Source: a virus
Taxonomy: Duplodnaviria; Heunggongvirae; Uroviricota; Caudoviricetes
Strand: one strand, 5' to 3'
IMG/VR virus record: IMGVR_UViG_3300021431_000077
Coordinates: 39,062 to 103,061 of that record
DNA length: 64,000 bases
Position numbers and translations under genes: made by a program. Of the stretch, positions 6,476 through 61,280 are shown in pieces. The notes beneath the pieces were generated by a model that searched no databases, was not told where the DNA came from, and was given only the letters and a program-made list of their open reading frames with translations. Each line of letters starts with the position of its first letter. Position 1 is the stretch's first letter.

Positions 6476-7374
6476 AAATCATAGACAACTTTGAACAAAT
6501 CAGCAAGCTCCTGCGTTTCGAACGTACGGGTGACTGCTACTACCTTGAAATCTTGCTTCGTGCCAAGGATGGAAACAATGTCCAGGGCAAGCATAACAAT
6601 GGCGACCGCACGATTCGAGAGATTCTCTTGAACCACGAAGGCCACCTTGAAGAGCTCCGTGACGAAATCATCAAGCTCTGCCATGAGTTCAACGCCCGTG
6701 CGTATATCCGTTTGAACCGTCGTAACTATACGGCCATCGGATGGCACTATGTCAGGGAGTTCATCTACCGTGCCAAGGAGAACGACACCAAGCAGTTCGA
6801 ACATCATCAGCTTGACCCGCAACGCAACCCGTTCCGTGCCATGAGTACGGCATGTGGAAAGGTAAGCTCCGAACCGAGAGCTAGTACGACATGGCTTATC
6901 GACCTTGACGACTGCACGGTTGATAGCCCTATTGTAAAGGCGTTCGAGGCGGAGATTATGAAGCCTGGTATGAACGTGAAGGTTGACCCCAAGGACATGA
7001 TTGTGGCTCATATTCCGTCAAGGACTGGCATTCACCTGATTGTCCGTCCGTTCAATGCTTCGAAGTATATCGACCAGACGACCGTTGTGAAGCCGACAGA
7101 AGAGTATCGTATGTTGCATGCCGTGCTAGTCTGGGCTATGCAGAACAAGGTTGATATCAGAACCTTGAATGAACTCCTTCGACCCGAGGAACAGCTTGAA
7201 GAAACCTCCGACCATCTTTATTTGACGGAAGAGGATATCGACCGTATCGAGAAGAATTACAGAAAGGTTAATGAAAAGATTGACGTAACTGGATTCAATA
7301 TGACGGTCGGCGAGTTCAGTGCTGGCGTCCACAAGGACCAGCCGACAATCCTGTATGCGGAGGCTGCAGAATGA
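6472..7374 (+). CDS. hypothetical protein (300 aa) upstream of and translationally coupled to glf
   Basis: ORF track, start moved to MKIIDNF (ATGA overlap with upstream stop). Confidence 0.5.
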   Translation: MKIIDNFEQISKLLRFERTGDCYYLEILLRAKDGNNVQGKHNNGDRTIREILLNHEGHLEELRDEIIKLCHEFNARAYIRLNRRNYTAIGWHYVREFIYRAKENDTKQFEHHQLDPQRNPFRAMSTACGKVSSEPRASTTWLIDLDDCTVDSPIVKAFEAEIMKPGMNVKVDPKDMIVAHIPSRTGIHLIVRPFNASKYIDQTTVVKPTEEYRMLHAVLVWAMQNKVDIRTLNELLRPEEQLEETSDHLYLTEEDIDRIEKNYRKVNEKIDVTGFNMTVGEFSAGVHKDQPTILYAEAAE

Positions 7375-8633
7375 AGTATCTGTTAGTAGGTGCTGGTCTC
7401 TACAACGCTGTAATCTATCAGCGTTTGATTCACGAGTTCGGCGTTAATCCACTTGACATTACCATCATCGAGAAGCGTCAGCACCTTGGTGGCAACTGCT
7501 ATACTGAAAAGATTGAGGGCATCACCGTTCACAAGTATGGAGCACATATCTTCCATACTTCTGACCCTGCTGTATGGAAGTTTGCGAACAAGTTCGCTAC
7601 GTTCAACAACTTTGTGAACAGTCCGATTGCAGTGTATTACAATCAGGATAGTAAGAAATCGGAGACATACAATCTTCCGTTCAACATGAACACATTTGTT
7701 CGCTTGTTTGAAGGTAAACTGGCGGTAAAGAGGGTTACCCCGAACATTGTCAAGGAGGCTATCCGATGTGAAATCGTGGCATACAAGCGTTCCCATCCTT
7801 TTGATACTCCGAGAAATCTTGAAGAACAGGCAATCTCCCTTGTTGGAACTACCGTGTATGAAAAGCTGATTAAGCACTACACTGAAAAGCAGTGGGAAAA
7901 GCCGTGTACCGAGTTGGAACCGTGGATAATCAAGCGTTTGCCGCTTAGGTTCACCTACGACAACAACTACTTCAATGACATCTATCAGGGTATTCCCGAG
8001 GAAGGATATACCAAGTGGATTGAGAACATGTTCGAAGGGCATCCTATTCACTATGGTGAAGATTTCTGTGAAGATATATTCAACCACAGTGTACATGGAA
8101 TGAGCACGAACAAGTTTACACAGGTGTTCTATTCTGGTGATGTATCTGACCTGTTGAACTCTTTGATGAACTACAGCAAACTGTTTGCTGGACTTGTTCA
8201 CGAGGACGGGTTTGACGATTACTGGCTTGACTGGCGTTCATTGAAGTTTAAAGAGAAGCTGCTTCCTACTGACAACTGGCAGGGAAATGCTGTCGTGAAC
8301 TACACTTCGCCAGACGTAGATTGCACGAGGAGCATTGAGCACAAGTTCTTCAACAATGAACAGCTTGATGAACAAAAGACAATTGTTACTTATGAGTACC
8401 CTGTGAAGTACGAGCGTGGCAAGTGTGAACAATACTATCCTCTTGCAAGCGAGAATGAAAAGTACCAGAAGATACTTGGTTACTTGCCGCAAAAGTTTGT
8501 CCCTACTGGCCGTCTCGGTCTGTACAAGTACATGGACATGGATGACGTTATTGGCGCTGCGCTGGCCGATACCAGAATTCTGGCTGACCCTGTGGTTGAG
8601 CCTGGTTGCATCTTCTCTACTACATCAGTTTAA
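7371..8633 (+). CDS. glf: UDP-galactopyranose mutase
   Basis: near-identical blocks to bacterial Glf: GAGLYNAV (FAD fold), HLGGNCYTE, HKYGAHIFHT, NLPFNMNTF, LEEQAISLVG, YTEKQW, RFTYDNNYF, QGNAVVNYT. Confidence 0.92.
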   Translation: MKYLLVGAGLYNAVIYQRLIHEFGVNPLDITIIEKRQHLGGNCYTEKIEGITVHKYGAHIFHTSDPAVWKFANKFATFNNFVNSPIAVYYNQDSKKSETYNLPFNMNTFVRLFEGKLAVKRVTPNIVKEAIRCEIVAYKRSHPFDTPRNLEEQAISLVGTTVYEKLIKHYTEKQWEKPCTELEPWIIKRLPLRFTYDNNYFNDIYQGIPEEGYTKWIENMFEGHPIHYGEDFCEDIFNHSVHGMSTNKFTQVFYSGDVSDLLNSLMNYSKLFAGLVHEDGFDDYWLDWRSLKFKEKLLPTDNWQGNAVVNYTSPDVDCTRSIEHKFFNNEQLDEQKTIVTYEYPVKYERGKCEQYYPLASENEKYQKILGYLPQKFVPTGRLGLYKYMDMDDVIGAALADTRILADPVVEPGCIFSTTSV

Positions 8634-8994: not shown

Positions 8995-9963
8995 ATGACA
9001 AAATCTAAAAACGTAAGAAGTCTTAAAACGCTTAAACATATTGCTGACAATTTCGGTAAGGATAAGGGCAAGTCTAAAAAGAAGGAACACCTTCTTGACA
9101 AGATTTTTGACAAGTCGGAGGCAGAACTTGCGAAAGAACCTGTGGAAATGCTGGACGAAGGCGAGTCTCCGATGGACGACCTCCCGAGTGAAAAGGAAGT
9201 GGACCTTGAACCCGCACATGAAGTTACCCCTAGGATGCTTGACGTAAGGCCGATTACCAAGCGATACGACGGGATTAAGCAGAATGTCGTTGTGTTCAGC
9301 GGTGGCTTTGACAGCACCCTGATTCTTGTTGACTTGCTCGAAAAGGGTTTCAAGCCCAGACTGCTTACGTTCCAGTGCAAACAGTTTGGCGACAATCTTC
9401 ATTACGTGTCTGAAATGGCTGCACAGCAGAAGATTCTCGAATACTTGGCAAAGAAGTACGATTATACCCCGAGCCGTGATTACATCAGGCTCGAAGGCGA
9501 CCTGATTGGATGGACAGGTTCTGAACCCGCCTTGTTCCAACAGCCGTTTATGACATCTATGGTGTCTATCGGCGGTCGAAACAACTCTTGTTACCACTTT
9601 GGGTATCATCGTGGCGACGACTTCTGGCACAGCTCCCACAACATCCTTGCAGCACAGGAACATCTGTTGGCAGTGGCAGGGCAGAAGAACATCATGTTCA
9701 GCTTCCCGTTGCAGTATTTTACAAAGGCTGACATCATCCGCATGCTGAACTACTATCATTTCCCGACAGACCTTTGCACATTTTGCTATTCCCCGACCTA
9801 CAAGGGCCGCTGCGGTCATTGCGTGGCTTGCCAGACTTACGACAAGGCGATTGATGAAATTACCCGTACATCGGGTGCTTATAAAAAAATGGGTGCGGAC
9901 CTGTATTACCCAGAAGGATTTATCGACAGCGTGCCGAAGAAGTCCTCTTCTTGGGATGACTAA
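8995..9963 (+). CDS. queC: QueC-like 7-cyano-7-deazaguanine synthase with ~90 aa K/E-rich N-terminal extension
   Basis: PP-loop VVVFSGGFDSTL; C-terminal zinc motif CTFC...RCGHCVAC matching QueC CGHCAAC. Confidence 0.8.
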   Translation: MTKSKNVRSLKTLKHIADNFGKDKGKSKKKEHLLDKIFDKSEAELAKEPVEMLDEGESPMDDLPSEKEVDLEPAHEVTPRMLDVRPITKRYDGIKQNVVVFSGGFDSTLILVDLLEKGFKPRLLTFQCKQFGDNLHYVSEMAAQQKILEYLAKKYDYTPSRDYIRLEGDLIGWTGSEPALFQQPFMTSMVSIGGRNNSCYHFGYHRGDDFWHSSHNILAAQEHLLAVAGQKNIMFSFPLQYFTKADIIRMLNYYHFPTDLCTFCYSPTYKGRCGHCVACQTYDKAIDEITRTSGAYKKMGADLYYPEGFIDSVPKKSSSWDD

Positions 9964-9980
9964 TAAAGATAGGTATTGAA

Positions 9981-10943
9981 ATGGAAAAGAAACTTAACAC
10001 ATATACAAACGGAAACCACAAGGTAACCATCTACTCTGATGGTACAAAAATCAAAGAAACCATCGACCCCAAGGCCGACCATTTCACTTATGATTTTCCA
10101 GAAAATTTTGACATCAAGATTACCGACCAGTGCGACGGTGGCTGTGTATATTGCCATGAAAACTCCACTGTGAACGGAAAGCATGGTGACCTCAAGGCTT
10201 TGGAACCGATGATTGCAACCCTGCATGCTGGTACGGAATGCGCTGTGGGCGGGGGCAACGCTTTGGCTCACCCTGACCTCGTATGGTTCCTCGAACGCTT
10301 GAAGGAACAGGGTGTCATTGCGAACATCACCATTAACCAGCGTCACCTGAGACCGTACAAGGACCTCATCTGCAAGATTGTAGGCGAAGGCCTTGTTCAT
10401 GGAATTGGCATTTCCCTTGCCGATGCAAGCAACACGGAAGACTTTGCTTTCATCGACACGCTCGGCAACAATGTCGTTATCCACACCATTGCGGGCATCC
10501 TTTCCGAAAAGGATGTTTCCCCGTTGATGGGCCGCAAGATTCTTATCCTTGGCTACAAGGACTTGCGCCGTGGGCACGCCCTGCTCGAAAAGAAGTCCGA
10601 CGAAATCAAGGCGAACATCAAGTGGTTGCAGAGCCTGTTGGTTCGGATTGGTTCAACCAATATCAATCCGTTCAAGGTAATCTCGTTTGACTGCCTCGGT
10701 ATCGAACAGCTTAACCCGAAGGCGTTGCTCGACATTTCCGACGCCCGTTATGAAACCCTTTTCCAAGGTTCGGACACGGATGTTAAGGACGCTGACGGAA
10801 ACATTGCCTGTGCGACGATGTACATCGACGTTCCCAACATGCAGGTGGCCCGTATGAGCACTGCTGCGTTGGACAAGCGTTATCCGTTCACGGGTAAGGA
10901 AAACATTCACGACCTGCTTCAGATTACTACACAAGGATGGTAA
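9981..10943 (+). CDS. radical SAM protein (CDGGCVYCHEN = Cx3Cx2C), possibly QueE-like
   Basis: radical SAM cysteine triad near N-terminus; adjacency to queC; 320 aa is longer than typical QueE. Confidence 0.55.
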   Translation: MEKKLNTYTNGNHKVTIYSDGTKIKETIDPKADHFTYDFPENFDIKITDQCDGGCVYCHENSTVNGKHGDLKALEPMIATLHAGTECAVGGGNALAHPDLVWFLERLKEQGVIANITINQRHLRPYKDLICKIVGEGLVHGIGISLADASNTEDFAFIDTLGNNVVIHTIAGILSEKDVSPLMGRKILILGYKDLRRGHALLEKKSDEIKANIKWLQSLLVRIGSTNINPFKVISFDCLGIEQLNPKALLDISDARYETLFQGSDTDVKDADGNIACATMYIDVPNMQVARMSTAALDKRYPFTGKENIHDLLQITTQGW

Positions 10944-10945
10944 GT

Positions 10946-11617
10946 ATGAGAACAATCAGAGAACATGTGTTTGAAACGAATTCCAGTTCGTGCCATAGCC
11001 TTACTGTTTCCGACAAGCAGTTGCCATCGGATTTGAAATTTCCGAAGACCCTTCTGATGGCGGGGACCAATTGGTACGATGCCAATTCTGATTTGGTTAA
11101 TCCAGAGGAAAAGGCTGACTATGTGGCGGTATGCCTTGCCGAGTACCTTGAATGGGAACTCGACCTCCGTACGGTGAAGTTTTATCGGGAGTTTGTTCCT
11201 TCCAAAAAATGGGGAGCGTTTGAACGTGCGGTAGACGGGCACTCTTGGTATACATGCAAGGTTGACGGTGTGGATGTCCCTGCAATGTATAGGGCGACCG
11301 ATTCGTTGCGACCGCCAAGGAAGGTGGTTGAAACAGTAACCGAGCATTTTGAAACCATCAAGAAGAATATCGAAACCACGTTTGCCAAGCACGGCGTTCA
11401 AGTGAAATGGTTTGACAAGGATAATCGTGGAATTGATTTTGATTTTGTTAACGGTGGCGTAATGGTCAAGGGAAGTATCGACGACCGTTCCTCGCCCAGA
11501 AATTGCTATCAAGAAACAAAGGCGATTATCGAAATGCTTAACGAGGACGAACCCGAACGCCTGTTCAACTTTATTTTCAACCCTGAATCAATTGTTCACT
11601 GTGATTCAGACTCGTAA
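10946..11617 (+). CDS. member 1 of paralogous family with N-terminal motif MRTIREHVFETNSSSCHS
   Basis: conserved 19-aa N-terminus shared with four other ORFs; body unrelated. Confidence 0.6.
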   Translation: MRTIREHVFETNSSSCHSLTVSDKQLPSDLKFPKTLLMAGTNWYDANSDLVNPEEKADYVAVCLAEYLEWELDLRTVKFYREFVPSKKWGAFERAVDGHSWYTCKVDGVDVPAMYRATDSLRPPRKVVETVTEHFETIKKNIETTFAKHGVQVKWFDKDNRGIDFDFVNGGVMVKGSIDDRSSPRNCYQETKAIIEMLNEDEPERLFNFIFNPESIVHCDSDS

Positions 11618-14282: not shown

Positions 14283-14423
14283 ATGGGAATTTTTAAACAT
14301 CTTGAAAAAATACCGATACTTATGGCATCATTTATTCTTGCAATTCCTGCAGTTATAGGATTGCTGCTTGAATGTATTCCATTGGCTGTCTTCGGTATTT
14401 TGATTTATAAAACGAGGGATTAA
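14283..14423 (+). CDS. small membrane protein (46 aa)
   Basis: ORF-track ORF trimmed to ATG downstream of promoter; RBS agaggt. Confidence 0.4.
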   Translation: MGIFKHLEKIPILMASFILAIPAVIGLLLECIPLAVFGILIYKTRD

Positions 14424-14424
14424 A

Positions 14425-14907
14425 ATGAAAACCATTAGATTAGGCGTATTTGAAACCAATTCGTCTTCGGCACATGTGTTTACATATACCCCGAAGGATA
14501 AATGGGAAAGGTTTGTTGCGGGTGACCCAAACCTGATTTGGCTCAGGTATAACCCGATGACCGATAATACTCCATATGACAAGTCTGATAACATTGTCGA
14601 GGTGAAGGACTATGCAAAATACCTTCGTGAGCATTATCCTGACGACTTTGGCGAATTGTCGTTGGAGTTTATGGAAACCTTTATACGGATTACCGTAAAT
14701 CATAAAAACTCTGGTGGAAATCCAATCAGTGAGTTGCTCTATAAATTAGAGGACGACCACAAGGCAAGCAACTATCAGGAAATGAAGGACCTCTCGGATG
14801 ACTTTACTCAGACTGGCGATTACGATTGGGACAAGTCCGAAGTCACTGAAGTTAAGGAAGGTGACAATACCTTCATTAAAGCCCGTGCCGTATGGTTCGA
14901 TGGTTAA
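14425..14907 (+). CDS. member 4 of MKTIRxxVFETNSSSxHA family
   Basis: MKTIRLGVFETNSSSAHVF. Confidence 0.6.
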   Translation: MKTIRLGVFETNSSSAHVFTYTPKDKWERFVAGDPNLIWLRYNPMTDNTPYDKSDNIVEVKDYAKYLREHYPDDFGELSLEFMETFIRITVNHKNSGGNPISELLYKLEDDHKASNYQEMKDLSDDFTQTGDYDWDKSEVTEVKEGDNTFIKARAVWFDG

Positions 14908-15464
14908 TGGAGGATTGTATGAGTCTCATAGCCAGATTGTGGGAAGGTATATGTGAAGGTGGGCCGTCTATCCTAGCGTGTCATGAACGGATAATCGGCG
15001 GAATGGTCTATGCCTTTAAGAAGGCGTCTGAAACTGAAATAACTTTGGACGTATATTACGGAAATGACCATTACGATTTTGGCGTGGTGTTCAGGTCGGT
15101 TGTAAATGACAAGGAGCACTCCCCGTGTGTGACCATGAAGTACCCACCGAAGGAAAAATACGAGTTCATCCATGTTCAGGATGCCGTTGGACTGATTGGA
15201 ACATCGTTGCTTGGTGACTACAAGGAATGGAGTGACGATTCCATTAAACAGTGGGTTGAAAGCATGCTTGATGAGTACGGGAAGCTTGCCTCTTGGAGGA
15301 TATGGGTTTCCCAGAAGTTCAAGGAACTGGAATCATCCCTGCTTGAACCTGACTGGAACATCGTTGCGGCGATAACCAAAGAACTAAAAGCACATGCAGA
15401 CCTGATTTTCAAACCTGTACATGTTACATGTTCAGAAAGTCCCGAAGGCGAGAGAGAGGGATAA
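14907..15464 (+). CDS. hypothetical protein (185 aa)
   Basis: ORF track; start at ATG overlapping upstream stop (TAATG). Confidence 0.45.
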   Translation: MEDCMSLIARLWEGICEGGPSILACHERIIGGMVYAFKKASETEITLDVYYGNDHYDFGVVFRSVVNDKEHSPCVTMKYPPKEKYEFIHVQDAVGLIGTSLLGDYKEWSDDSIKQWVESMLDEYGKLASWRIWVSQKFKELESSLLEPDWNIVAAITKELKAHADLIFKPVHVTCSESPEGEREG

Positions 15465-15468
15465 GAGC

Positions 15469-17709
15469 ATGAACCCGAACGACTTGTTGGCGAAAAGTGA
15501 TGGCACTACATTGATAGCTCATTCCAGAGCAGTGGCTGACATGGCAAAGAGAATTGCTGAAACACTTGGTTTCGACAGTGTGTTAACACAACTATGCTAT
15601 TTTGCTGGGCTTTTACATGATATCGGCAAAGCGATATCACCTTTTCAGGAGATACTGCGTGAAAATGAGCATGGACCTGGTAAATTGAGCGACGATTGCA
15701 ATGCTCGTCACAGTGCGGTAAGCGGGTGGTTTATGGCTAACCATGCAGCAACGTTCAATAGAATGGTTCCTGGGGTGAATGGCGGAGCTAGTGGAATCTT
15801 GTGCCGTGCTGTTACATGGCACCACAAGCCATATTTTCCTGTTGAGAAAAGTCGGTTTGCTTACGATGAACAGTTTGATACAGAAATCAAGTCGTTTGTT
15901 GATGCACTCGTTGATAACCTTGATTGGAGCATTAGTTCTGACGACGATTTTGATTTTTCTGGTGGAGATTTTTCTTATTTCTATACCCGAAATCTTTCTG
16001 GTAAAATCAATTCTCGAATCCATGCTGTTAGGTCGGTAGTCATACGTGCTGACTATCTTGTAAGTGGAGGAGTTTCTGACTACTCGATAAGTAAACTTGC
16101 GCCTATTGATATCGATTCTATCGCATGCCCGATTGATTTCAATGAAGACCGATTTGTATTTCAGCGAAACGAAATTGCAAAGAAGGCAATGGAATCTGGC
16201 AAGAAAACTGTTGTGATAAATGCACCCGCAGGTTTTGGAAAGACTATTATTGGTCTTCTTGCAGGCCTTCATCGAGGGGAAAAGATTTACTGGGTTGTTC
16301 CAAGAAACGTTATTGCCGAAGAAGTGTATCGTTCTATTTTGAATTTGCTTTTGATGTTGAATATATCGGAAACATATTCTTTGAACATGATTTTTGGCGG
16401 AAAGGTTCAACTCGGCCCAGAAAATGCCGACATTACAGTAACTAACATTGATGCTATCTTGCAGCCGATGGGTCAACATGGAAATATGGGTTTGCAGTGT
16501 GATATGTTGAGCGGCACAATGATATTTGACGAATATCATGAACTGGTAGGAAATAGCCCGATGTGGTCGGCATTTCTTATCCTCATGGCAGCAAGAATGG
16601 AGGCAAACGGTCGGAATATCCTCGTTTCGGCAACACCGTTAGATATCATGTCGTGTTTGAAAGTGAACCCTGATGAGGTGCTGTATCTTCCAGGTAAGAA
16701 CACACATTACCAAGCACAGCATTCAGTTCCATACCACATTGAAACGGCTGACAGAATGCCCTCCTTGGTTAGTGGAGATAGTTTTGCTATCAGCAACAGC
16801 ATTTCCCGTGTGCAAAAAGTGCAGTGTGGAATTATGTTTCATAGCAAGTATACTGACGAAGACAAAAACGGCATCATATCCCAATTATTGGATTCGTTCG
16901 GAAAGGGAAAGACCAATGTGGTCGATGGGGTATCAGCAGGCCCGATTTTAAGCACTTCGCTTGACCTGTCGTGTACTCATTTGTATGAAAGTGTATGCAG
17001 CCCTATGGATTCCATGCAACGAATTGGTCGGTGTAACCGCTTTGGCCACAAAAGTGGATGTTCGGTAACTTTCGTGACTGGAAGCGTTCCAGGTGAACGA
17101 GACTATGTGAATATGAAATTTACGACGGAGCTTCGCTCAGAATGGTGTGACACTATCAGTCGGGAATTCAATAAAAAAGATATTACTCTTGATGAAATGT
17201 ATTGTTTCTACGATAAGTTCATGGAAGAAAATGCTGCCCGTATTAAAAGCTGGATGGTTGGTCTTCAGCAAGAGAGTATCAACTGTCTCGTTACAAGCTG
17301 TGCCCCATGTGCTTTTGAAGTTGTTTTACCGAAAAAGAACAAAGGCAAAAGCGGCGGTACTATACGAAACCCAGAACCAAATATGTACTACATAGTCCCG
17401 TCGTCCGACGAGAAGACATACTATGGGCCGTTCAGTATAGACATTGCCACGGCAAACGGACCGAAGTATGGTAGAATATTCAGACAGGTGAACAACTTAA
17501 CTGAATACGAAAAGGCCAAGTTGGTATCACCTACACTTGTGAGCGGGACAACAGAATATCTATCGGGTGGAAAACGCCAGAAGAATTGGTATAAGGAGAA
17601 TGCCGACAAGTTGGCTAGAAACTCGGAAAGCCCATTTGTCGTATCTGCTAGGTATATGACATACGACTCGTTCAATGGCGTTGTGTTCAACACGAATATG
17701 GATGAATAA
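15469..17709 (+). CDS. cas3: Cas3 HD nuclease-helicase (no Cas2 fusion)
   Basis: N-terminal HD motif HSRAVADMA...LLHDIGKA; Walker A INAPAGFGKT; DEYH box MIFDEYHEL; followed by Cascade/Cas6 genes and CRISPR array. Confidence 0.85.
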   Translation: MNPNDLLAKSDGTTLIAHSRAVADMAKRIAETLGFDSVLTQLCYFAGLLHDIGKAISPFQEILRENEHGPGKLSDDCNARHSAVSGWFMANHAATFNRMVPGVNGGASGILCRAVTWHHKPYFPVEKSRFAYDEQFDTEIKSFVDALVDNLDWSISSDDDFDFSGGDFSYFYTRNLSGKINSRIHAVRSVVIRADYLVSGGVSDYSISKLAPIDIDSIACPIDFNEDRFVFQRNEIAKKAMESGKKTVVINAPAGFGKTIIGLLAGLHRGEKIYWVVPRNVIAEEVYRSILNLLLMLNISETYSLNMIFGGKVQLGPENADITVTNIDAILQPMGQHGNMGLQCDMLSGTMIFDEYHELVGNSPMWSAFLILMAARMEANGRNILVSATPLDIMSCLKVNPDEVLYLPGKNTHYQAQHSVPYHIETADRMPSLVSGDSFAISNSISRVQKVQCGIMFHSKYTDEDKNGIISQLLDSFGKGKTNVVDGVSAGPILSTSLDLSCTHLYESVCSPMDSMQRIGRCNRFGHKSGCSVTFVTGSVPGERDYVNMKFTTELRSEWCDTISREFNKKDITLDEMYCFYDKFMEENAARIKSWMVGLQQESINCLVTSCAPCAFEVVLPKKNKGKSGGTIRNPEPNMYYIVPSSDEKTYYGPFSIDIATANGPKYGRIFRQVNNLTEYEKAKLVSPTLVSGTTEYLSGGKRQKNWYKENADKLARNSESPFVVSARYMTYDSFNGVVFNTNMDE

Positions 17710-17746
17710 ATATAGTAGTTTGTAAATATATTTTTACATAATACGC

Positions 17747-17775
17747 CTGACATCCATGATTAAATTAACTATATT
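17747..17775 (+). promoter_or_regulatory. putative internal promoter CTGACA-N17-TATATT ahead of Cascade genes
   Basis: seen in sequence. Confidence 0.4.
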
Positions 17776-17808
17776 TAATATCAAATCAAACACAAAAAGG
17801 AAACAAAT

Positions 17809-18807
17809 ATGTCTACACAGCTGTCAACAATTAAAATTCAGGTAACATTCAAGGGTCAGGGCATTGTCAACTTTGACAGCACCGACCAAAAGTGGATGGT
17901 GAACAAGAGTCTTGGAGCGAATGTCATTTCTCATGACAATACCAAGATTGCCAAGGCGTCATATACGAAGGATGCCGATGGAAAAATTGTTCGTACACTG
18001 AAGGTGTCTTCTCAGTGTTTACGACAGGCTATATATGGAGTTAAACACAATCCGAATATAATGTATAGCGCTGAATTGTTTAATGATTCTATAACATCCA
18101 AGCCTGCTCTCGTTGGCGGTTACATGTATGTTAACGAAAAGAAGGGGGCGGCAAGAAGGAAAAGTCCGCTTGCTGTAACAGATGCTCATGAAGTAAGCGG
18201 TGCGATTTCTATGTTTAACGTACATAGTAACAGCGGAGACCGCAATGATACAAGCCTCTACTATGTTGAAGAAGTAGGAGCAACCCGCTTTGTATCAGAC
18301 ATGTTTATTGACCTTTCTGAGCTTAAACACGTTCCCCTTTCGGACACCTATGGACGCAACAGTGTGTTTCCAGATGGTGAAGAAGTGTTCAAAGCAAAAC
18401 TGACTGAAAAGTATGGTACAATCACCGAAGGTTTCTTTCATATGGACGGTGAAGAGGGTGTCGTTCCTGAATATGGGGTAGATATTTCTGATGCCGCTGT
18501 TGTGGATATTTTCCGTGATTTGATTGCCCATATCAAGCAACTCCGTATAGTACGTGCCAATGGTTATCTTGAATTTGAATCAATGAAATTCTTCAAATTT
18601 GAAAATGGTTCGTGGGTACAAATGAATGAACCTGTTGAATTTACAGTTAAGAGCCGTTATATCCTTACAGAAGACCAGGATGCCGCTAAAACACTTCATG
18701 ACGATGTGTGTGGACAGGCGAAGCAGGACCAAACTTCTCGTAAAGAAGCTAAGGCAGAAAAAAAGGCTAAGAAGGCTGCGAAGAAGGCTGAAAAGGAAAA
18801 CAAGTAA
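17809..18807 (+). CDS. Cascade subunit candidate (Cas7f2/Cas7fv-like by size and order), K-rich C-terminal tail
   Basis: position between cas3 and cas6f; size 332 aa matches type I-F2 (I-Fv) backbone subunits; no direct motif proof. Confidence 0.4.
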   Translation: MSTQLSTIKIQVTFKGQGIVNFDSTDQKWMVNKSLGANVISHDNTKIAKASYTKDADGKIVRTLKVSSQCLRQAIYGVKHNPNIMYSAELFNDSITSKPALVGGYMYVNEKKGAARRKSPLAVTDAHEVSGAISMFNVHSNSGDRNDTSLYYVEEVGATRFVSDMFIDLSELKHVPLSDTYGRNSVFPDGEEVFKAKLTEKYGTITEGFFHMDGEEGVVPEYGVDISDAAVVDIFRDLIAHIKQLRIVRANGYLEFESMKFFKFENGSWVQMNEPVEFTVKSRYILTEDQDAAKTLHDDVCGQAKQDQTSRKEAKAEKKAKKAAKKAEKENK

Positions 18808-18809
18808 TC

Positions 18810-26480: not shown

Positions 26481-27674
26481 ATGATTGAGATACAGGGAAA
26501 GTTTAATACAGCCAAGGTGTTCACCGACAGTATCGAACCCGAGGCTTACACACAGATATTGAACATGATGTGTCAGTGCTGGGCTAAGGACATGCAGGTT
26601 CGCATCATGCCCGACGTACATGCTGGAAAGGGGTGTACGGTCGGAACCACTATGACCATCAAGGACAAGGTTGTTCCTAACTTGGTCGGGGTGGACATTG
26701 GATGTGGTATGCTTGTCGCCAAGTTGAAAGACCGTTCGGTTGATTTCGACAAGTTGGATAAGGCAATCCGTGAACGGATTCCGTCTGGTAAGAGCCACCG
26801 TGAAAGCAAGCATTCGATGGCAAAGGACTTTCCTATCGAGGATATGATTGTCTACAAGGAAGGGCAGATGGAGTACACCGAGCTGTTGTCTCTCGGCAGT
26901 TTGGGCGGAGGCAATCACTTCTGCGAGTGCGACAAGGATTCCCACGGTAATCTGTACATCGTAATCCACTCTGGTTCCCGTCATCTTGGGTTGGCAACAT
27001 GTGATTACTGGCAGGGAATTGCAATCGACGAATGCAACGACCTTACGCAGCAGCGTGGGGCCATAATCACCAAGTACAAGAGTGAGGGCCGTGAAGATGA
27101 ACTTCCCGCAGCGTTGGCGAGCATCCCTCATTTCCCGCCTCCGAAGGAACTGTCTTACCTCACTGGCAAGTCGTTTGACGGATATCTGCATGACATGGCG
27201 TTGGCTCAGGAGTTTGCAACACGCAACCGTGAAGCGATGCTTGAAGAGATTGTCAGGGCGCTTCGCCTTCATGTTGTGGACAAGTTCTGTACATTGCATA
27301 ACTACATCGACTTGAAGCACATGATACTACGCAAGGGTGCAGTATCGGCTCAGGAAGGCGAGCGTCTTATCGTTCCTTTGAACATGAGGGATGGTTCTCT
27401 TATCTGCACAGGTAAGGGCAACCCTGACTGGAACTTCTCTGCTCCTCACGGTGCAGGCCGCAAGATGTCCCGTTCCAAGGCAAAGGAAAGCATTTCCCTT
27501 GAAGCTTACCAGAAGGCAATGCGTGGCATCTACACGACTTGTGTAAACAAATCTACTTTGGATGAATCCCCGATGGCATACAAGCCGTCAAAGGAAATCA
27601 TCGAGAACATCAAGGATAGCTGCGATGTTGTAGATACTATCAAGCCTGTGTACAACTTCAAGGCATCTGACTAA
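26481..27674 (+). CDS. rtcB: RtcB RNA 3'-phosphate ligase
   Basis: MPDVHAGKGCTVG metal-site motif and APHGAGRKMSRSKA (catalytic His) motif; 397 aa. Confidence 0.88.
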   Translation: MIEIQGKFNTAKVFTDSIEPEAYTQILNMMCQCWAKDMQVRIMPDVHAGKGCTVGTTMTIKDKVVPNLVGVDIGCGMLVAKLKDRSVDFDKLDKAIRERIPSGKSHRESKHSMAKDFPIEDMIVYKEGQMEYTELLSLGSLGGGNHFCECDKDSHGNLYIVIHSGSRHLGLATCDYWQGIAIDECNDLTQQRGAIITKYKSEGREDELPAALASIPHFPPPKELSYLTGKSFDGYLHDMALAQEFATRNREAMLEEIVRALRLHVVDKFCTLHNYIDLKHMILRKGAVSAQEGERLIVPLNMRDGSLICTGKGNPDWNFSAPHGAGRKMSRSKAKESISLEAYQKAMRGIYTTCVNKSTLDESPMAYKPSKEIIENIKDSCDVVDTIKPVYNFKASD

Positions 27675-28952: not shown

Positions 28953-29188
28953 AAATTTTGCAGTGCAAACTAGAAGACTTTGCAATCGAATATCGCAACG
29001 AAAAGGCGAAGGGTAGCGAAGGAATCAGCATCCCCAATGCCGAACTCAAATACTACAAGGGGTATCTTGATGGGATGTGTTGTGCTTTGAATTGCAAGTC
29101 TTGGAAACTTGAAAGCGGATATTGGGTTGTTCGGGATGCCCGCAACCGCATCATAGCCACTTGTCAGGAATCTTGGGACGAGGAGTAA
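28934..29188 (+). CDS. hypothetical protein (84 aa)
   Basis: ORF track trimmed. Confidence 0.35.
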   Translation: MRKELIEILQCKLEDFAIEYRNEKAKGSEGISIPNAELKYYKGYLDGMCCALNCKSWKLESGYWVVRDARNRIIATCQESWDEE

Positions 29189-29190
29189 AT

Positions 29191-29772
29191 ATGAGAAGAC
29201 TGTTTATTATCAGAAAGGATTTGCAGCTGCATCCTGGAAAGTTGGCTGCAATGGTGGCCCACTGTGCCGAAGGGTACTGGCTAAACGTATTTAAGTATCT
29301 GAGCGTAGTCGAGGACAACGAATACGATACACTGCCAGTAGAAACTCCGAACGACCCTGATTACTGGATGCGTTATCGTCATCCTGCTGTATTTGAGGCG
29401 GCGAAAGCTGCTCACGAACGGGGTGAGAAAACATTTAAGTTCAAGGCGGAAAACTCCCGTCCTACGAAGACGATTTCGTTTGAAATCCCGAAAGAAATCT
29501 GGGATGGCTACATCAATGATATCTTCACGAAGACAATCTGCGAGGCAAAGAACCTTAACCATCTAATGAAGGTGGAAGAGGTCGCCAAGGAACTTGGTCT
29601 TGTCCCGCTCGTTGACTACGGGTATATCGACGATGTTTGCAAGACCGATTTGACCCCAGAGTTCACAGACGAGAACGGTGTAGGCCGTTGCCGTGTCGGA
29701 ATCTGGTTCAAACCGCTTTCTGACGAAATCAGCCATAAGCTGAGCAAGAAGTACCAGCTTTACAAGGGGTAA
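29191..29772 (+). CDS. peptidyl-tRNA hydrolase PTH2-like
   Basis: N-terminal RLFIIRKDLQLHPGKLAAMVAHCAEG resembles PTH2 core VVRTDLKMGKGKIAAQCSHA; RBS ggaggag. Confidence 0.5.
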   Translation: MRRLFIIRKDLQLHPGKLAAMVAHCAEGYWLNVFKYLSVVEDNEYDTLPVETPNDPDYWMRYRHPAVFEAAKAAHERGEKTFKFKAENSRPTKTISFEIPKEIWDGYINDIFTKTICEAKNLNHLMKVEEVAKELGLVPLVDYGYIDDVCKTDLTPEFTDENGVGRCRVGIWFKPLSDEISHKLSKKYQLYKG

Positions 29773-39158: not shown

Positions 39159-39192
39159 CCCAATCTGAAAAAAATATAGAAAATTTAGTCAA

Positions 39193-39226
39193 CCCCCTTG
39201 ACAAAGGGGGTTTAATTATCTATATT
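39193..39226 (+). promoter_or_regulatory. terminator-promoter module: CCCCC-ttgacaaa-GGGGG hairpin + TTT, TTGACA-N17-TATATT
   Basis: seen in sequence. Confidence 0.65.
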
Positions 39227-39254
39227 ATTCACGTAAACACAAAAGGAAACCAAA

Positions 39255-40833: not shown

Positions 40834-40869
40834 CATCTCTTTGAAAAAAAGTACAAAAAAATTTCAAAA

Positions 40870-40903
40870 CCCCATTGACAATGGGGTTTTAATTATCTAT
40901 ATT
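40870..40903 (+). promoter_or_regulatory. terminator-promoter module: perfect 8-bp palindrome CCCCATTG-A-CAATGGGG + TTTT; TTGACA-N17-TATATT
   Basis: seen in sequence. Confidence 0.7.
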
Positions 40904-40928
40904 ATTGTACATAACAAGGAGATTCCTC

Positions 40929-42096: not shown

Positions 42097-42293
42097 CCGC
42101 ATTATACATCGGAATCTACATCATTGTCGCACTCATCGTCTATCTCGTCGCACTGTTCGCATGGGCGTTCGGCATCGGGATGGGTTACCCTTATGCCAAA
42201 TGGTATCACTGGTCCAATCTAGGGTGCGCATGCATTATGTTTGGCTATCCTGTCGCAGCAATCGCAGCGGGGATTTTAATCTTCGGTAGATAA
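42093..42293 (+). CDS. small membrane protein
   Basis: ORF track. Confidence 0.4.
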   Translation: MTALYIGIYIIVALIVYLVALFAWAFGIGMGYPYAKWYHWSNLGCACIMFGYPVAAIAAGILIFGR

Positions 42294-42316
42294 AAAATCA
42301 TAAAAAATTACATAAA

Positions 42317-42350
42317 CCCGCTTGACAAGGCGGGTTTAATTGTCTATATT
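42317..42350 (+). promoter_or_regulatory. terminator-promoter module CCCGC-ttgacaag-GCGGG + TTT; TTGACA-N17-TATATT
   Basis: seen in sequence. Confidence 0.65.
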
Positions 42351-42384
42351 AACACATGTAACACAAAAACAAAAAGGAACAAAC

Positions 42385-44382: not shown

Positions 44383-44929
44383 AAAAGAGTATGATGCTGC
44401 ACTGGAAGCTATCGATTGCGAGATTGTAGAGCATACCAAGGCAGCCGAAGAACTGGAAGCCAAGCGGAGAGCGCTGCAAAATAAAAAGAGGGCTAAGTTC
44501 GACCCAGAATACCGTGCCTTGCAGGAACGGCTACGAAAAGCCAACGCCGAGCGCAAAAGATTTATAGCGGACGCCGCCAAGAAGTTCGTCGGAAAATGGC
44601 TGTTCATTGACGACGGAACTTATATACATGTCAGTGGCGTAGACGCCCCTACGAAAGAATCCACCAGTGGAGACTTCCAGGGTGAAGGGTATCTCGTGTT
44701 TCCTACGCACTACGACATTAACGTTGAGACTGGCGACGGGAAGGTGAACATATCCACGGGTTCGTCCAAGAACAATGTGGTATATCTCACCTTATATGCC
44801 GAGGACGTGCTTAAAGTATCGAAGAAAGACGTAATGGAAGACTTGGAGAGCAACCTGGATGGAATATTGTCAACCTATAAGGAACTATGCAAGCGGGTGA
44901 AATGGAAACCTTCCGTAGGCAAAGCATGA
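44360..44929 (+). CDS. hypothetical protein (189 aa)
   Basis: ORF track. Confidence 0.45.
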   Translation: MQKRMKTEKEYDAALEAIDCEIVEHTKAAEELEAKRRALQNKKRAKFDPEYRALQERLRKANAERKRFIADAAKKFVGKWLFIDDGTYIHVSGVDAPTKESTSGDFQGEGYLVFPTHYDINVETGDGKVNISTGSSKNNVVYLTLYAEDVLKVSKKDVMEDLESNLDGILSTYKELCKRVKWKPSVGKA

Positions 44930-44948
44930 CGTGTGTTTTTTTCATAAA

Positions 44949-44981
44949 CCCCTTGACAAGAGGGGTTTAATTATCTATATT
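44949..44981 (+). promoter_or_regulatory. terminator-promoter module CCCC-ttgacaaga-GGGG + TTT; TTGACA-N17-TATATT
   Basis: seen in sequence. Confidence 0.65.
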
Positions 44982-45021
44982 ATGTAGTGTAGAATGCACA
45001 AAGGCATAAAAAGGAGTTATT

Positions 45022-52693: not shown

Positions 52694-52768
52694 TGCCCCG
52701 TAGCTCAATGGACTTAGAGCGTCGCTCTCCGAAGGCGAAGGTTACGAGTTCGACCCTCGTCGGGACAA
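52694..52768 (+). tRNA. tRNA-Arg (anticodon CCG)
   Basis: hand-folded cloverleaf: acceptor TGCCCCG/CGGGACA (one A-C mismatch), D-arm GCTC-AATGGACTTA-GAGC, anticodon arm TCGCT-CTCCGAA-GGCGA, T-arm ACGAG-TTCGACC-CTCGT. Confidence 0.75.
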
Positions 52769-52879
52769 CTAAAAGGGTAGGGACCCCTGAAGGGTGCATT
52801 TTCGATAAGATTTCCCAATCCATCCGAACCAAACACTTGCACCTGGGTCCTGCCCTTAATCTTTTAAAATGGAGAAACC

Positions 52880-53602: not shown

Positions 53603-54268
53603 ATGTCCTATACAGTACAGGAACTTGCAGACAAGTTTAGGTTTGCAGCAATGAAGTTCATCAACGATAAGGAACTCGATGCAAAACAAAAGAAAATAAA
53701 CGCAGAGACTCGATACGGCAATGCTTACAAGAAAATGCTTGAATGTAAGCCAATGTTCGCCGATGTGCAAACTCTTGCGAACAGCCTGTATGATTACCTC
53801 CATGTAACTCACAAAAGGCTTGACTATTGTTCTGAAGAATTGTATCAGGCCAGTTACAATAAGGGATTTCTCAGCATAGGAAGGAACTATTTCATTTACA
53901 ACTGCGTTCCTATTGACAAGAACCTCTATAATGGCAGTTTTCAGGCTATCCTCATCAGTTATGGCGACGGTTCAATTAACAGGGCTAGCTTGACCGACTA
54001 TGGTGGAACCAAGGAAGACTATGCAAATATAGTTAACCCAGATTATGTATACATTATCGAAGACCCGAAGAAGTTTGTCGAGGAATGTCAGAATCCAGAT
54101 GGTGACGTATATGCCAGCCATTGCTTCTCTAAACTGGATTACTTTAGTGAGGCACTGGAACAAATCCCTGAAAGGATAGATGCGTTGTTCAAGTTTGCAA
54201 ACGCTTTTGCTGACACAGTTGACGGCAATGTTGCAATGGCTGCATACATGGCGAAATACAGAAAATAA
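53603..54268 (+). CDS. hypothetical protein (221 aa)
   Basis: ORF track. Confidence 0.5.
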   Translation: MSYTVQELADKFRFAAMKFINDKELDAKQKKINAETRYGNAYKKMLECKPMFADVQTLANSLYDYLHVTHKRLDYCSEELYQASYNKGFLSIGRNYFIYNCVPIDKNLYNGSFQAILISYGDGSINRASLTDYGGTKEDYANIVNPDYVYIIEDPKKFVEECQNPDGDVYASHCFSKLDYFSEALEQIPERIDALFKFANAFADTVDGNVAMAAYMAKYRK

Positions 54269-54280
54269 TTGCAAAATCCC

Positions 54281-54309
54281 TTGACAGAACTTTCGTTCTT
54301 TTCTATATT
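54281..54309 (+). promoter_or_regulatory. promoter TTGACA-N17-TATATT driving non-coding region
   Basis: seen in sequence. Confidence 0.55.
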
Positions 54310-54625
54310 GTATGATACGGCACGGGGGCAACCCCGTGGTAACAGTGAAGCAAGCCTGTAGATTGCGGGCTAAATAGCTGTTCGCCACCCCACAGGCGTG
54401 TGGATGGGGCGGTCGGAGTCGGACCGTATGAGCGACCAAGGTTCAGCCCGTCACCTAGAAATGGGGCCAGTTGACGCTTTGCGAGTTTCGATGATACACC
54501 ATCATGATGGTCTGATGTGAAAACTCGTAGCACTTGCGACGACTAGACTTACCCTCGGGGTAAGCTGAATGCCGCAGCGTATCCCCCCTACGCTTAGCCT
54601 AATCAGCAGGGGGTTTCTTTTTATT
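54310..54625 (+). ncRNA. candidate structured non-coding RNA (~315 nt) ending in terminator-like hairpin CCCCCT...AGGGGG + T-run
   Basis: no credible ORF; GNRA-capped hairpin CACGGGG-gcaa-CCCCGTG, 7-bp helix CGAGTTT...AAACTCG enclosing palindrome CCATCATGATGG; GC-rich. Confidence 0.4.
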
Positions 54626-54639
54626 CAGAGTAAGTCAAA

Positions 54640-55140
54640 ATGGAAGAAGTTTATCAAGTTTCATCTGTTCCTGTCATGGGCATCTGGTGCGCCTACAAGC
54701 TTGCGCCACTCTACCCGTTCTTCTCATCGTTCAATGTCTCGGAAGCGAAACACGGTCAGAACTCTGTTAAAATCCTCTCCACCGAAAGGGGAAAATTCAG
54801 TCAGAAAGGAACTATTCACCGCAGGATTAACCCGAACGACCTACTCAATTCCCACCAAATCGAGGTGGACATCCCGTACGAATACAGAATAAAGTTCCAG
54901 CTCGAAGACGGAACACTCCAGACAGTCTACACCAATGCCGACGAGGCAGGCTGCCTTCTCCGTCTCATGTCCTCCCAAGAGAATATCGACAAATTCAGGA
55001 AGCTTGCTCTCAAAGGCTATTGGGCGGCTGCTATGACAGCTCTCATGGGTGAAGAAGTTGTTGAAAAATCCTACATCAGCATGGCCGACAAGGAAAATCT
55101 TGAAGCGCTTTCTAAATTGGCTGCTAATAAAGTGGATTAA
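54640..55140 (+). CDS. hypothetical protein (166 aa)
   Basis: ORF track. Confidence 0.45.
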   Translation: MEEVYQVSSVPVMGIWCAYKLAPLYPFFSSFNVSEAKHGQNSVKILSTERGKFSQKGTIHRRINPNDLLNSHQIEVDIPYEYRIKFQLEDGTLQTVYTNADEAGCLLRLMSSQENIDKFRKLALKGYWAAAMTALMGEEVVEKSYISMADKENLEALSKLAANKVD

Positions 55141-57229: not shown

Positions 57230-57254
57230 AAAAAAATCTTAAAAAATGTTCGAA

Positions 57255-57288
57255 CCCGCTTGACAATGCGGGTTTAATTATTTATATT
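57255..57288 (+). promoter_or_regulatory. terminator-promoter module CCCGC-ttgacaat-GCGGG + TTT; TTGACA-N17-TATATT
   Basis: seen in sequence. Confidence 0.65.
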
Positions 57289-57314
57289 GTAGGCATAGCA
57301 TAAGGAAATAGAAA

Positions 57315-60955: not shown

Positions 60956-61237
60956 ATGGCCGTACACTACTCGATGCTCTGCAACCCCCGAAATGACGGG
61001 GACGGTAGGGCCCTTGCCGAGGAACTGAGGAAGCACCTGACCGAAAGCCTAGTGGCGTTCACCGTCAATAAGAACAAGGATGAGTTCGTCAGGATGACCT
61101 CCTGCCGATACCTCTCCGATGGCGACATCAGGGTTTGCTTCATTATGGGCGACATGATGCCGCAACAACTTACCGACTACCTGTATGCCCATCAGGATGA
61201 ACTGGGCATAGACATAATGGAAGCGGGAAAAGATTAA
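60956..61237 (+). CDS. hypothetical protein (93 aa)
   Basis: ORF track. Confidence 0.4.
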   Translation: MAVHYSMLCNPRNDGDGRALAEELRKHLTESLVAFTVNKNKDEFVRMTSCRYLSDGDIRVCFIMGDMMPQQLTDYLYAHQDELGIDIMEAGKD

Positions 61238-61245
61238 AAAATCCC

Positions 61246-61274
61246 TTGACAACCCGCCTTTAATTACCTATATT
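61246..61274 (+). promoter_or_regulatory. promoter TTGACA-N17-TATATT placed only 6 nt before ATG 61281 (leaderless or near-leaderless mRNA)
   Basis: seen in sequence. Confidence 0.5.
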
Positions 61275-61280
61275 ATAAGC

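Follow-up and report, generated by a model that had tools for sequence, protein, structure and literature searches.

What does the window (the whole 64-kb stretch of phage DNA analysed) carry at 54281-54625, between two + strand ORFs of 221 aa (53603-54268) and 166 aa (54640-55140), neither of which matches Pfam or PHROG? An earlier sequence-only reading had proposed a structured non-coding RNA, about 300 nt long and equipped with a promoter and a terminator of its own, and had offered three functions for it: a phage sRNA, a riboswitch-like leader or attenuator of the downstream operon, or a novel RNA.

Transcription signals, coding potential and known families

The hexamers TTGACA (-35, 54281-54286) and TATATT (-10, 54304-54309), separated by a 17-nt spacer, form a predicted sigma-70-type promoter on the + strand (54281-54309) that matches the consensus at 11 of 12 positions. 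With up to one mismatch, 23 near-identical copies of this pattern occur in the window against 0.46 expected, one of them directly upstream of the tRNA-Arg(CCG) called by ARAGORN at 52694-52769. The promoter is therefore regarded as a genuine phage-wide type and not a chance match; it is near-invariant among the relatives that carry the RNA, and transcription is predicted to start at about 54316-54318. At the 3' end, an intrinsic terminator (54584-54622, + strand) is formed by the arms CCCCCT (54584-54589) and AGGGGG (54608-54613) with an inner GCU/AGC stem, followed by UUUCUUUUU (TTTCTTTTT at 54614-54622), and ends 15–17 nt before the ATG at 54640. Its stem (6 + 3 bp) is unchanged in all 18 distinct copies of the element, although the hairpin is omitted by the automatic terminator scan because its loop exceeds 8 nt. 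The gene product would thus be a + strand RNA of ~305 nt, running from about 54316 to about 54620. The G+C fraction is 0.60 at 54325-54474 versus roughly 0.40–0.45 in the flanks.

A 62-nt promoter module is repeated in the window at 39168-39229, 40845-40906, 42292-42353, 44923-44984, 57230-57291 and 61216-61277. Its -35 hexamer lies inside the loop of a G+C-rich inverted repeat (e.g. CCCCC-TTGACAA-AGGGGG-TTTAATTAT...TATATT), so that the module resembles a terminator and a promoter in one.

Four mechanical ORFs (30, 40, 76 and 155 aa) overlap the RNA region. The divergent allele type represented by locus L001 differs from the window copy by indels of -1, -1, -1, -2, +1 and -2 nt, which break the frames of all of these ORFs, and the gene caller of the sequence collection left the ~370-nt gap without a gene in every relative.

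Searches with Rfam 15 at gathering thresholds returned two tRNAs only for the whole window. When the threshold was relaxed to E<=10, a 501-nt slice of the window copy gave two chance matches and the L001 allele three others; over both alleles these included the hairpin ribozyme (E=1.3), snoRNAs and mmgR (E=2.8), and the hairpin ribozyme look-alike AACAGUGAAGC is not retained in the L001 allele. A tmRNA was rejected because ARAGORN finds only the two tRNAs in the window and because L121 does not preserve the possible tag frame (GCG..UAG, 54432-54458). No covariance model for RNase P RNA, 6S, SRP or Y RNA matched at E<=10, and none of the 30 window ORFs scanned with Pfam, which cover part of the genome only, contains a Ro60/TROVE domain. 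Riboswitches and T-boxes were set aside on the same grounds, with no aptamer model matching at E<=10 and the downstream gene also occurring without the element. The genes flanking the RNA contain no TnpB or Cas12 domain, which argues against an omega RNA, and a CRISPR-related RNA was discarded because the element does not resemble the window CRISPR repeat and the spacers match no fetched locus. Short motifs suggested group I, group II domain V and RNase P P4, and also the Ro-binding helix of Y RNA, 16S decoding-site mimicry and the 11-nt tetraloop receptor; none of these has a model match, and all were rejected. A 9-mer shared with rRNA is no more than chance predicts for sequences of these lengths.

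What had been observed in the letters is confirmed. The consensus promoter, the CCCCCT...AGGGGG hairpin with its T-run before the next gene and the G+C-rich interior are all found where they had been placed, as are the three helices and the palindrome that had been named. The lack of a plausible ORF is borne out by the relatives, among which no conserved small ORF was recovered, and the doubt that had been expressed about tmRNA, RNase P or 6S RNA was justified, with no significant Rfam family on either of two divergent alleles even at E<=10.

Presence and absence among relatives

Homologues of the 166-aa protein number 31 in a large protein collection, and three further loci are found in IMG/VR on contigs of 175–422 kb; the window is therefore assigned to a jumbo phage, a giant phage of gut or rumen type. 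Copies of the RNA were gathered from DNA fetched around the 166-aa homologues and by one exact 23-mer scan of metagenome contigs. This yielded 22 copies (18 distinct) from many metagenome samples, all belonging to one jumbo-phage clade and all lying directly upstream of the same 166-aa gene. Loop-anchored degenerate patterns found only the known contig among IMG/VR viral contigs, and two pattern matches in GTDB species genomes lie inside coding sequence and were rejected by the covariance model as chance. That model (R1) identified no paralogue in the window or in related loci. A 16-base terminator pattern matched 92 stretches of viral contigs, all of which, apart from the known contig, are consistent with chance at this pattern length; one such match, in L025, was inspected and is unrelated. 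The only BLAST match among INPHARED phages, plasmids and E. coli genomes was one of 27 nt, attributable to chance. Several contigs end inside the RNA or at its 5' edge (L006, L129, L125/L126, L128 and L007, each at position 1), with L006 starting 5 nt before the predicted transcription start; such ends may be assembly breaks at a polymorphic site or may belong to transcript-derived assemblies.

Comparison with loci that lack the RNA shows that promoter, RNA and terminator are present or absent as a unit. In L009 and L010 the sequence reads ...AATAATTGCA|GAGTAAGT..., whereas in the window it reads ...AATAATTGCA[354 nt]GAGTAAGT...; the cassette (54274-54627, + strand) is hence a clean 354-bp insertion or deletion that starts shortly ahead of the -35 hexamer and stops directly behind the U-run, its boundary being ambiguous by the dinucleotide CA. 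In L009–L013 the 221-aa and 166-aa genes lie 17–30 nt apart and promoter, RNA and terminator are all missing. The 166-aa gene is also present without the RNA element in L016 and L018, and the downstream protein of RNA-less relatives is 85–87% identical. L014 and L015 represent an intermediate state, in which the promoter, the 5' GNRA hairpin and the terminator tail are kept and the ~255-nt body is replaced by 66 nt. This replacement (GGCGTAGTCTGGTTCATTTAGAAGCC...; L014 3889-3954) is the ordinary intergenic leader of L017 (3922-3987); in L014 it matches neither an Rfam family nor a tRNA, and the RNA of that locus shows no unusual stability (z = -1.09).

These arrangements bear most directly on a cis-acting role, in which a signal would control read-through of the terminator into the 166-aa gene and those behind it. 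The short distance from the terminator end to the start codon at 54640 (15–17 nt) would suit such a leader, and an alternative hairpin, GCGUA-UCCCCCC-UACGC (54577-54593), overlaps both the P8 domain described below and the terminator stem, making competing folds conceivable. However, relatives with a closely similar downstream protein do without the whole cassette, and L014 and L015 retain promoter and terminator without the body. In addition, no riboswitch or T-box model matches at E<=10, and 305 nt is large for a leader. A leader or attenuator is accordingly disfavoured and regarded as improbable; of the three functions first offered this one falls away, whereas a novel RNA or phage sRNA remains the best fit.

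Replacement of the body as a unit in L014 and L015 could alternatively reflect a mobile RNA of ribozyme or intron-like type (a rearranged group I-like core, for example), which would explain why ~255 nt can be swapped. AUUGCGGG, GCCGCAGC, ACGACUAGA and AGUCGGACC presumably resemble the group I P, Q, R and S elements, and the loop GGAGUCG (54415-54421) can pair with CGACU (54540-54544). Against this, the look-alike motifs do not follow the canonical P-Q-R-S order, neither the Rfam group I model nor any other ribozyme model finds a match at E<=10, and no host gene or tRNA is interrupted, the flanks being a promoter and a terminator and not exons. The microhomology at the L014 junctions (TGRTA, CGC) also fits illegitimate recombination better than splicing or homing, and a mobile catalytic RNA is considered very improbable.

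The surroundings of the cassette vary as well. In L001 the cassette is present and the 221-aa gene absent. The 221-aa ORF (53603-54268) is itself an indel, missing from L001 and L132, where a 239–241-aa gene abuts the cassette, which marks the whole stretch at 52.6–55.2 kb of the window as a hot spot for the gain and loss of genes. Within about 3 kb of the RNA site, L014 and L015 encode an 816-aa protein with a weak Cas12f1-like_TNB match (7019-8501) and L017 a TnpB (OrfB_IS605) gene (1-1254); the window has neither a Cas12f1-like nor a TnpB gene at the corresponding position, and model R1 gave no match near the TnpB gene of L017 or the Cas12f-like gene of L014. Since some relatives lack the cassette, L014 and L015 lack the body and L113 lacks the first hairpin, the RNA is dispensable and moron-like, and is not needed for expression of the downstream gene. 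It could be of marginal function.

Fold, covariation and the palindromic loop

The predicted RNA (+ strand throughout) begins with P1 (54321-54338), a 7-bp hairpin with a GNRA tetraloop, CACGGGG-GCAA-CCCCGTG, whose isolated fold has z = -3.56. In another allele it reads CACAGGG-GAAA-CCCTGTG, with a G-C pair changed to A-U and the GNRA loop retained; at columns 11 and 22, 10 copies have a G-C pair and 3 have A-U. L113 has lost P1 by deletion and retains the rest of the RNA. P2/P2a (54339-54383) consists of an ACAG/CUGU helix, a 6x5–6-nt internal loop and an AGCCUG/CGGGCU hairpin with an NGAUK loop, and is followed by the P3 hairpin (54388-54409), CCCCA...UGGGG in the window and CUUCAUGG...UCGUGAAG in the L001 type, in which four pairs (columns 76-95, 77-94, 80-87 and 81-86) show changes on both sides. 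The window-type and L001-type alleles of this 5' domain (54339-54409) are 58% identical, yet each, folded alone, is predicted to form the same two hairpin domains, and P2/P2a takes the same fold independently in both.

Downstream lies a near-invariant 72-nt core (54410-54481) made up of P4 (54410-54426, CGGTC-GGAGTCG-GACCG), P5 (54429-54445), P6 (54446-54467) and a junction (54468-54481). The hairpins P4–P6 are predicted and show zero variation among the copies; the isolated core is not unusually stable (z = -0.49). The long arm (54476-54531, z = -2.50) has an outer GCU/AGC stem, a 7-bp helix CGAGUUU/AAACUCG (CGAGTTT at 54482-54488, AAACTCG at 54521-54527), a weak G·U-rich middle and an apical hairpin containing the palindrome CCATCATGATGG (54499-54510). 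P8 (54532-54580) is built from a CUUGCG/CGCAG helix around internal loops and the hairpin CUUACCC-UCG-GGGUAAG. It contains the cleanest pair of the alignment, 54538-54573, where 10 distinct copies have G-C and the other 8 have A-U, with zero exceptions, and one further compensatory change at columns 236 and 252.

The 18 distinct sequences were used to assess covariation, with the 3' partners slid by 1–3 columns and 500 shuffles as controls. Standard pairs fill 98.5% of the pair cells, and compensatory changes on both sides occur at 8 pairs, distributed over five helices, versus 0–3 in the slid controls; the observed covariation score was reached by none of the 500 shuffles. Many single-sided changes convert G-C or A-U to G·U. 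As these would read A·C on the other strand, the + strand RNA is the molecule under selection. The z-score of the whole RNA is only -2.06, modestly more stable than shuffles, and the support for the structure therefore comes from the comparative data and not from thermodynamics. Because all copies form one shallow clade, most helices, including the whole core, are invariant and hence predicted only.

Within the set of relatives the core is 96–100% identical to the window copy, as against 77–81% at third codon positions of the 166-aa gene; L120, for instance, has a core identical at 72 of 72 positions and third positions identical at 115 of 150. This constraint points to a function that depends on the exact sequence, e.g. 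a tertiary core or a binding surface. The proposal of a structured non-coding RNA of ~300 nt thus gains support from covariation in related phages, from strand-specific wobble pairs, from constraint above that of neighbouring synonymous sites and from the lack of a conserved ORF.

The same data weigh on the notion that the locus is not an RNA gene at all. A dimeric protein could recognise a perfect 12-bp palindrome, which might thus mark a DNA element, either a protein-binding or a recombination site, and mechanical ORFs of 30–76 aa could be taken for a small protein gene. Neither would account for substitutions that tolerate G·U in a strand-specific manner or for compensatory changes over five helices, and a protein gene is further opposed by indels in every frame and a gap without gene calls in all relatives. 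We consider both versions to have almost no probability.

The palindrome is the most informative feature of the RNA, which the sequence-only reading had not anticipated. At the tip of the long arm (54499-54510, + strand) the 12 nt read CCAU-CAUG-AUGG, the outer CCAU and AUGG forming the apical stem and the central four bases a candidate symmetric kissing or dimerisation loop. Most copies have CGCG here, the window type has CAUG, and L113 and L120 have UGCA; the tetranucleotide is self-complementary in every copy. The alleles differ by symmetric double changes, at positions 2 and 3 and then at positions 1 and 4, and no intermediate with a single change was seen among the 18 distinct copies. Six of 54 double substitutions preserve a tetranucleotide palindrome, and by a simple count two such events have a probability of ~0.01, where the three alleles amount to two symmetric double substitutions and strain recombination blurs their independence. 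Bases this close cannot pair within one strand, so any pairing of the loop would be between molecules, and the switches among CAUG, CGCG and UGCA suggest, without amounting to proof, that two copies of the RNA pair symmetrically. Self-duplexes of the 12-mers are predicted at -18 to -22 kcal/mol versus -14 for a non-palindromic control. With its 4-nt loop and 4-bp stem, the apical hairpin is small by the standards of kissing complexes, and an extended duplex or an opened closing pair would be needed; in L121 the closing pair is opened, giving the loop A-CGCG-A.

On these grounds we tentatively favour, at somewhat short of an even chance, an accessory, independently transcribed non-coding RNA that would act in trans and homodimerise through its palindromic loop. 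Transcription would start near 54316 from the phage-wide sigma-70-type promoter and end near 54620 at the intrinsic terminator, with hairpins protecting both ends. The transcript would fold into the 5' GNRA hairpin, the sequence-variable P2–P3 domain, the invariant P4–P6 core, the long arm and the P8 domain, and the loop at the tip of the long arm would pair with the same loop of a second molecule to give a symmetric homodimer. The GNRA loop may also take part in intermolecular contacts, leading to a larger assembly, and the invariant core presumably engages a partner. Acting in this way, the RNA would work in trans as a folded particle and not by regulating the downstream gene. No protein gene was found to co-occur with the RNA in the flanking regions compared, and the AlphaFold model of the 166-aa downstream protein (pLDDT 55) was too poor for a fold search.

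The strongest competitor is a trans-acting monomer, either a protein sponge or decoy (e.g. an anti-defence RNA) or a base-pairing sRNA, in which the palindrome would be incidental. The evidence for a standalone RNA, namely the promoter family, covariation and constraint, applies to it equally, and the invariant 72-nt core suggests a specific binding surface. Many anti-defence genes are accessory cassettes, and this cassette lies in a hypervariable stretch of small ORFs adjoining an R2K ATP-grasp gene. On the other hand, the longest complementarity to an antisense target within the 64-kb window is 12–13 nt, which is at chance level, no partner protein emerged and the poor model of the downstream protein does not supply one, and the symmetric double substitutions in the loop are left unexplained. 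A monomer is thus rather unlikely in our estimate, and the homodimerising RNA is retained as the preferred reading.

Likeness to self-assembling RNAs and the jumbo-phage setting

ROOL and GOLLD are ornate RNAs of phages or prophages that form RNA-only nanocages. Like the RNA described here, they are phage-borne, free-standing, structured and GC-rich relative to the genome. They are often found near tRNA islands in phages (bioRxiv 10.1101/2024.12.08.627333), and this trait of location is shared, as the RNA lies on jumbo-phage contigs at a distance of 1.5 kb (window) or 0.9 kb (L001) from an upstream tRNA-Arg(CCG). The differences are considerable: ROOL and GOLLD measure ~580 nt and >800 nt, compared with ~305 nt here, no Rfam model matches at E<=10, and this RNA is confined, as far as found, to one phage clade. 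For GOLLD there is evidence of symmetric intermolecular loop-loop pairing (Kretsch et al.); here a single candidate intermolecular contact was found. Cross-chain kissing loops of OLE and GOLLD have been seen by cryo-EM, and symmetric loops in OLE L9.3 (GGCC/GAUC/AGCU) and GOLLD L21a (GC/CG) show, as evolutionary support, the same substitution pattern (Kretsch et al., bioRxiv 10.1101/2024.12.08.627333). The OLE tetranucleotide switch, read as a homodimer bridge, is the closest parallel to CAUG/CGCG/UGCA, although OLE is bacterial, ~600 nt long and associated with proteins, and has no sequence or model similarity to this RNA.

The HIV-1 dimerisation initiation site (DIS) and phi29 pRNA both bring about RNA-RNA multimerisation through complementary bases in a hairpin loop; in pRNA two different loops pair, which gives rings, and the RNA is located on the packaging motor. 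The 6-nt loop A-CGCG-A of L121 resembles what we take to be the layout of the HIV-1 DIS, but the biology of both systems is unrelated and no pRNA model in Rfam matches. Structured-RNA candidates have also been catalogued from IMG/VR, requiring at least three unique viral regions and averaging 67 nt (PMC10690425). They are the same kind of object, found by comparative genomics on viral contigs and absent from Rfam, whereas the present RNA occurs in one contig of the viral collection searched. It appears to be a new family of free-standing phage structured RNA, possibly self-assembling.

The remainder of the window contains further features typical of a large phage. A phage-borne CRISPR-Cas locus (15421-20901) comprises a Cas3-like gene with HD, DEAD and Cas3 C-terminal domains (15421-17709), three ORFs without Pfam matches (17809-20327) and, beyond them, a CRISPR array (20328-20901) of 10 repeats with the consensus GTTTCCCGTGTGTGCGGGAATTGAAA and 34–35-nt spacers, none of which matched any of the fetched loci. 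A ClpX-like ATPase is encoded on the minus strand at 20944-22191. A tRNA-Leu(UAA) directly followed by an RtcB RNA ligase gene (E=2e-64), the two at 26387-27674, and a PTH2 peptidyl-tRNA hydrolase domain (29122-29772) together look like a tRNA repair or translation-maintenance module. PnuC-like NMN transporter and NadR-like (cytidylyltransferase-like + AAA_28) genes (24453-26375) suggest NAD+ salvage, in line with the NAD+ pathways reported for jumbo phages of the gastrointestinal tract (PMC11662467). QueC-like and radical-SAM genes (8995-10943) suggest 7-deazaguanine (queuosine-type) base modification, and a UDP-galactopyranose mutase gene is found at 7371-8633. Three ORF starts (10930-10990, 14409-14469 and 23731-23791) share a similar 61-nt 5' end and hence represent a small paralogous gene family in the phage.

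A wider form of the preferred reading, plausible but held with still less confidence, is that the RNA represents a class of compact, ~300-nt self-assembling phage RNAs, in which the kissing loop, with or without the GNRA loop, would give an RNA-only dimer or a larger particle. Natural RNA-only assemblies have been recognised recently, and the known examples are long RNAs. If this form is true, the phenomenon of ROOL, GOLLD and OLE would extend to a much smaller promoter-to-terminator cassette that is gained and lost by jumbo phages. The RNA is short, cleanly delimited and comes with natural knock-outs, lacking either the cassette or the body, which would make it a tractable system, and dimerisation through a single loop is a specific and directly testable prediction. 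The cassette would also enlarge the accessory 'moron' repertoire of jumbo phages, normally catalogued protein by protein, by an RNA gene.
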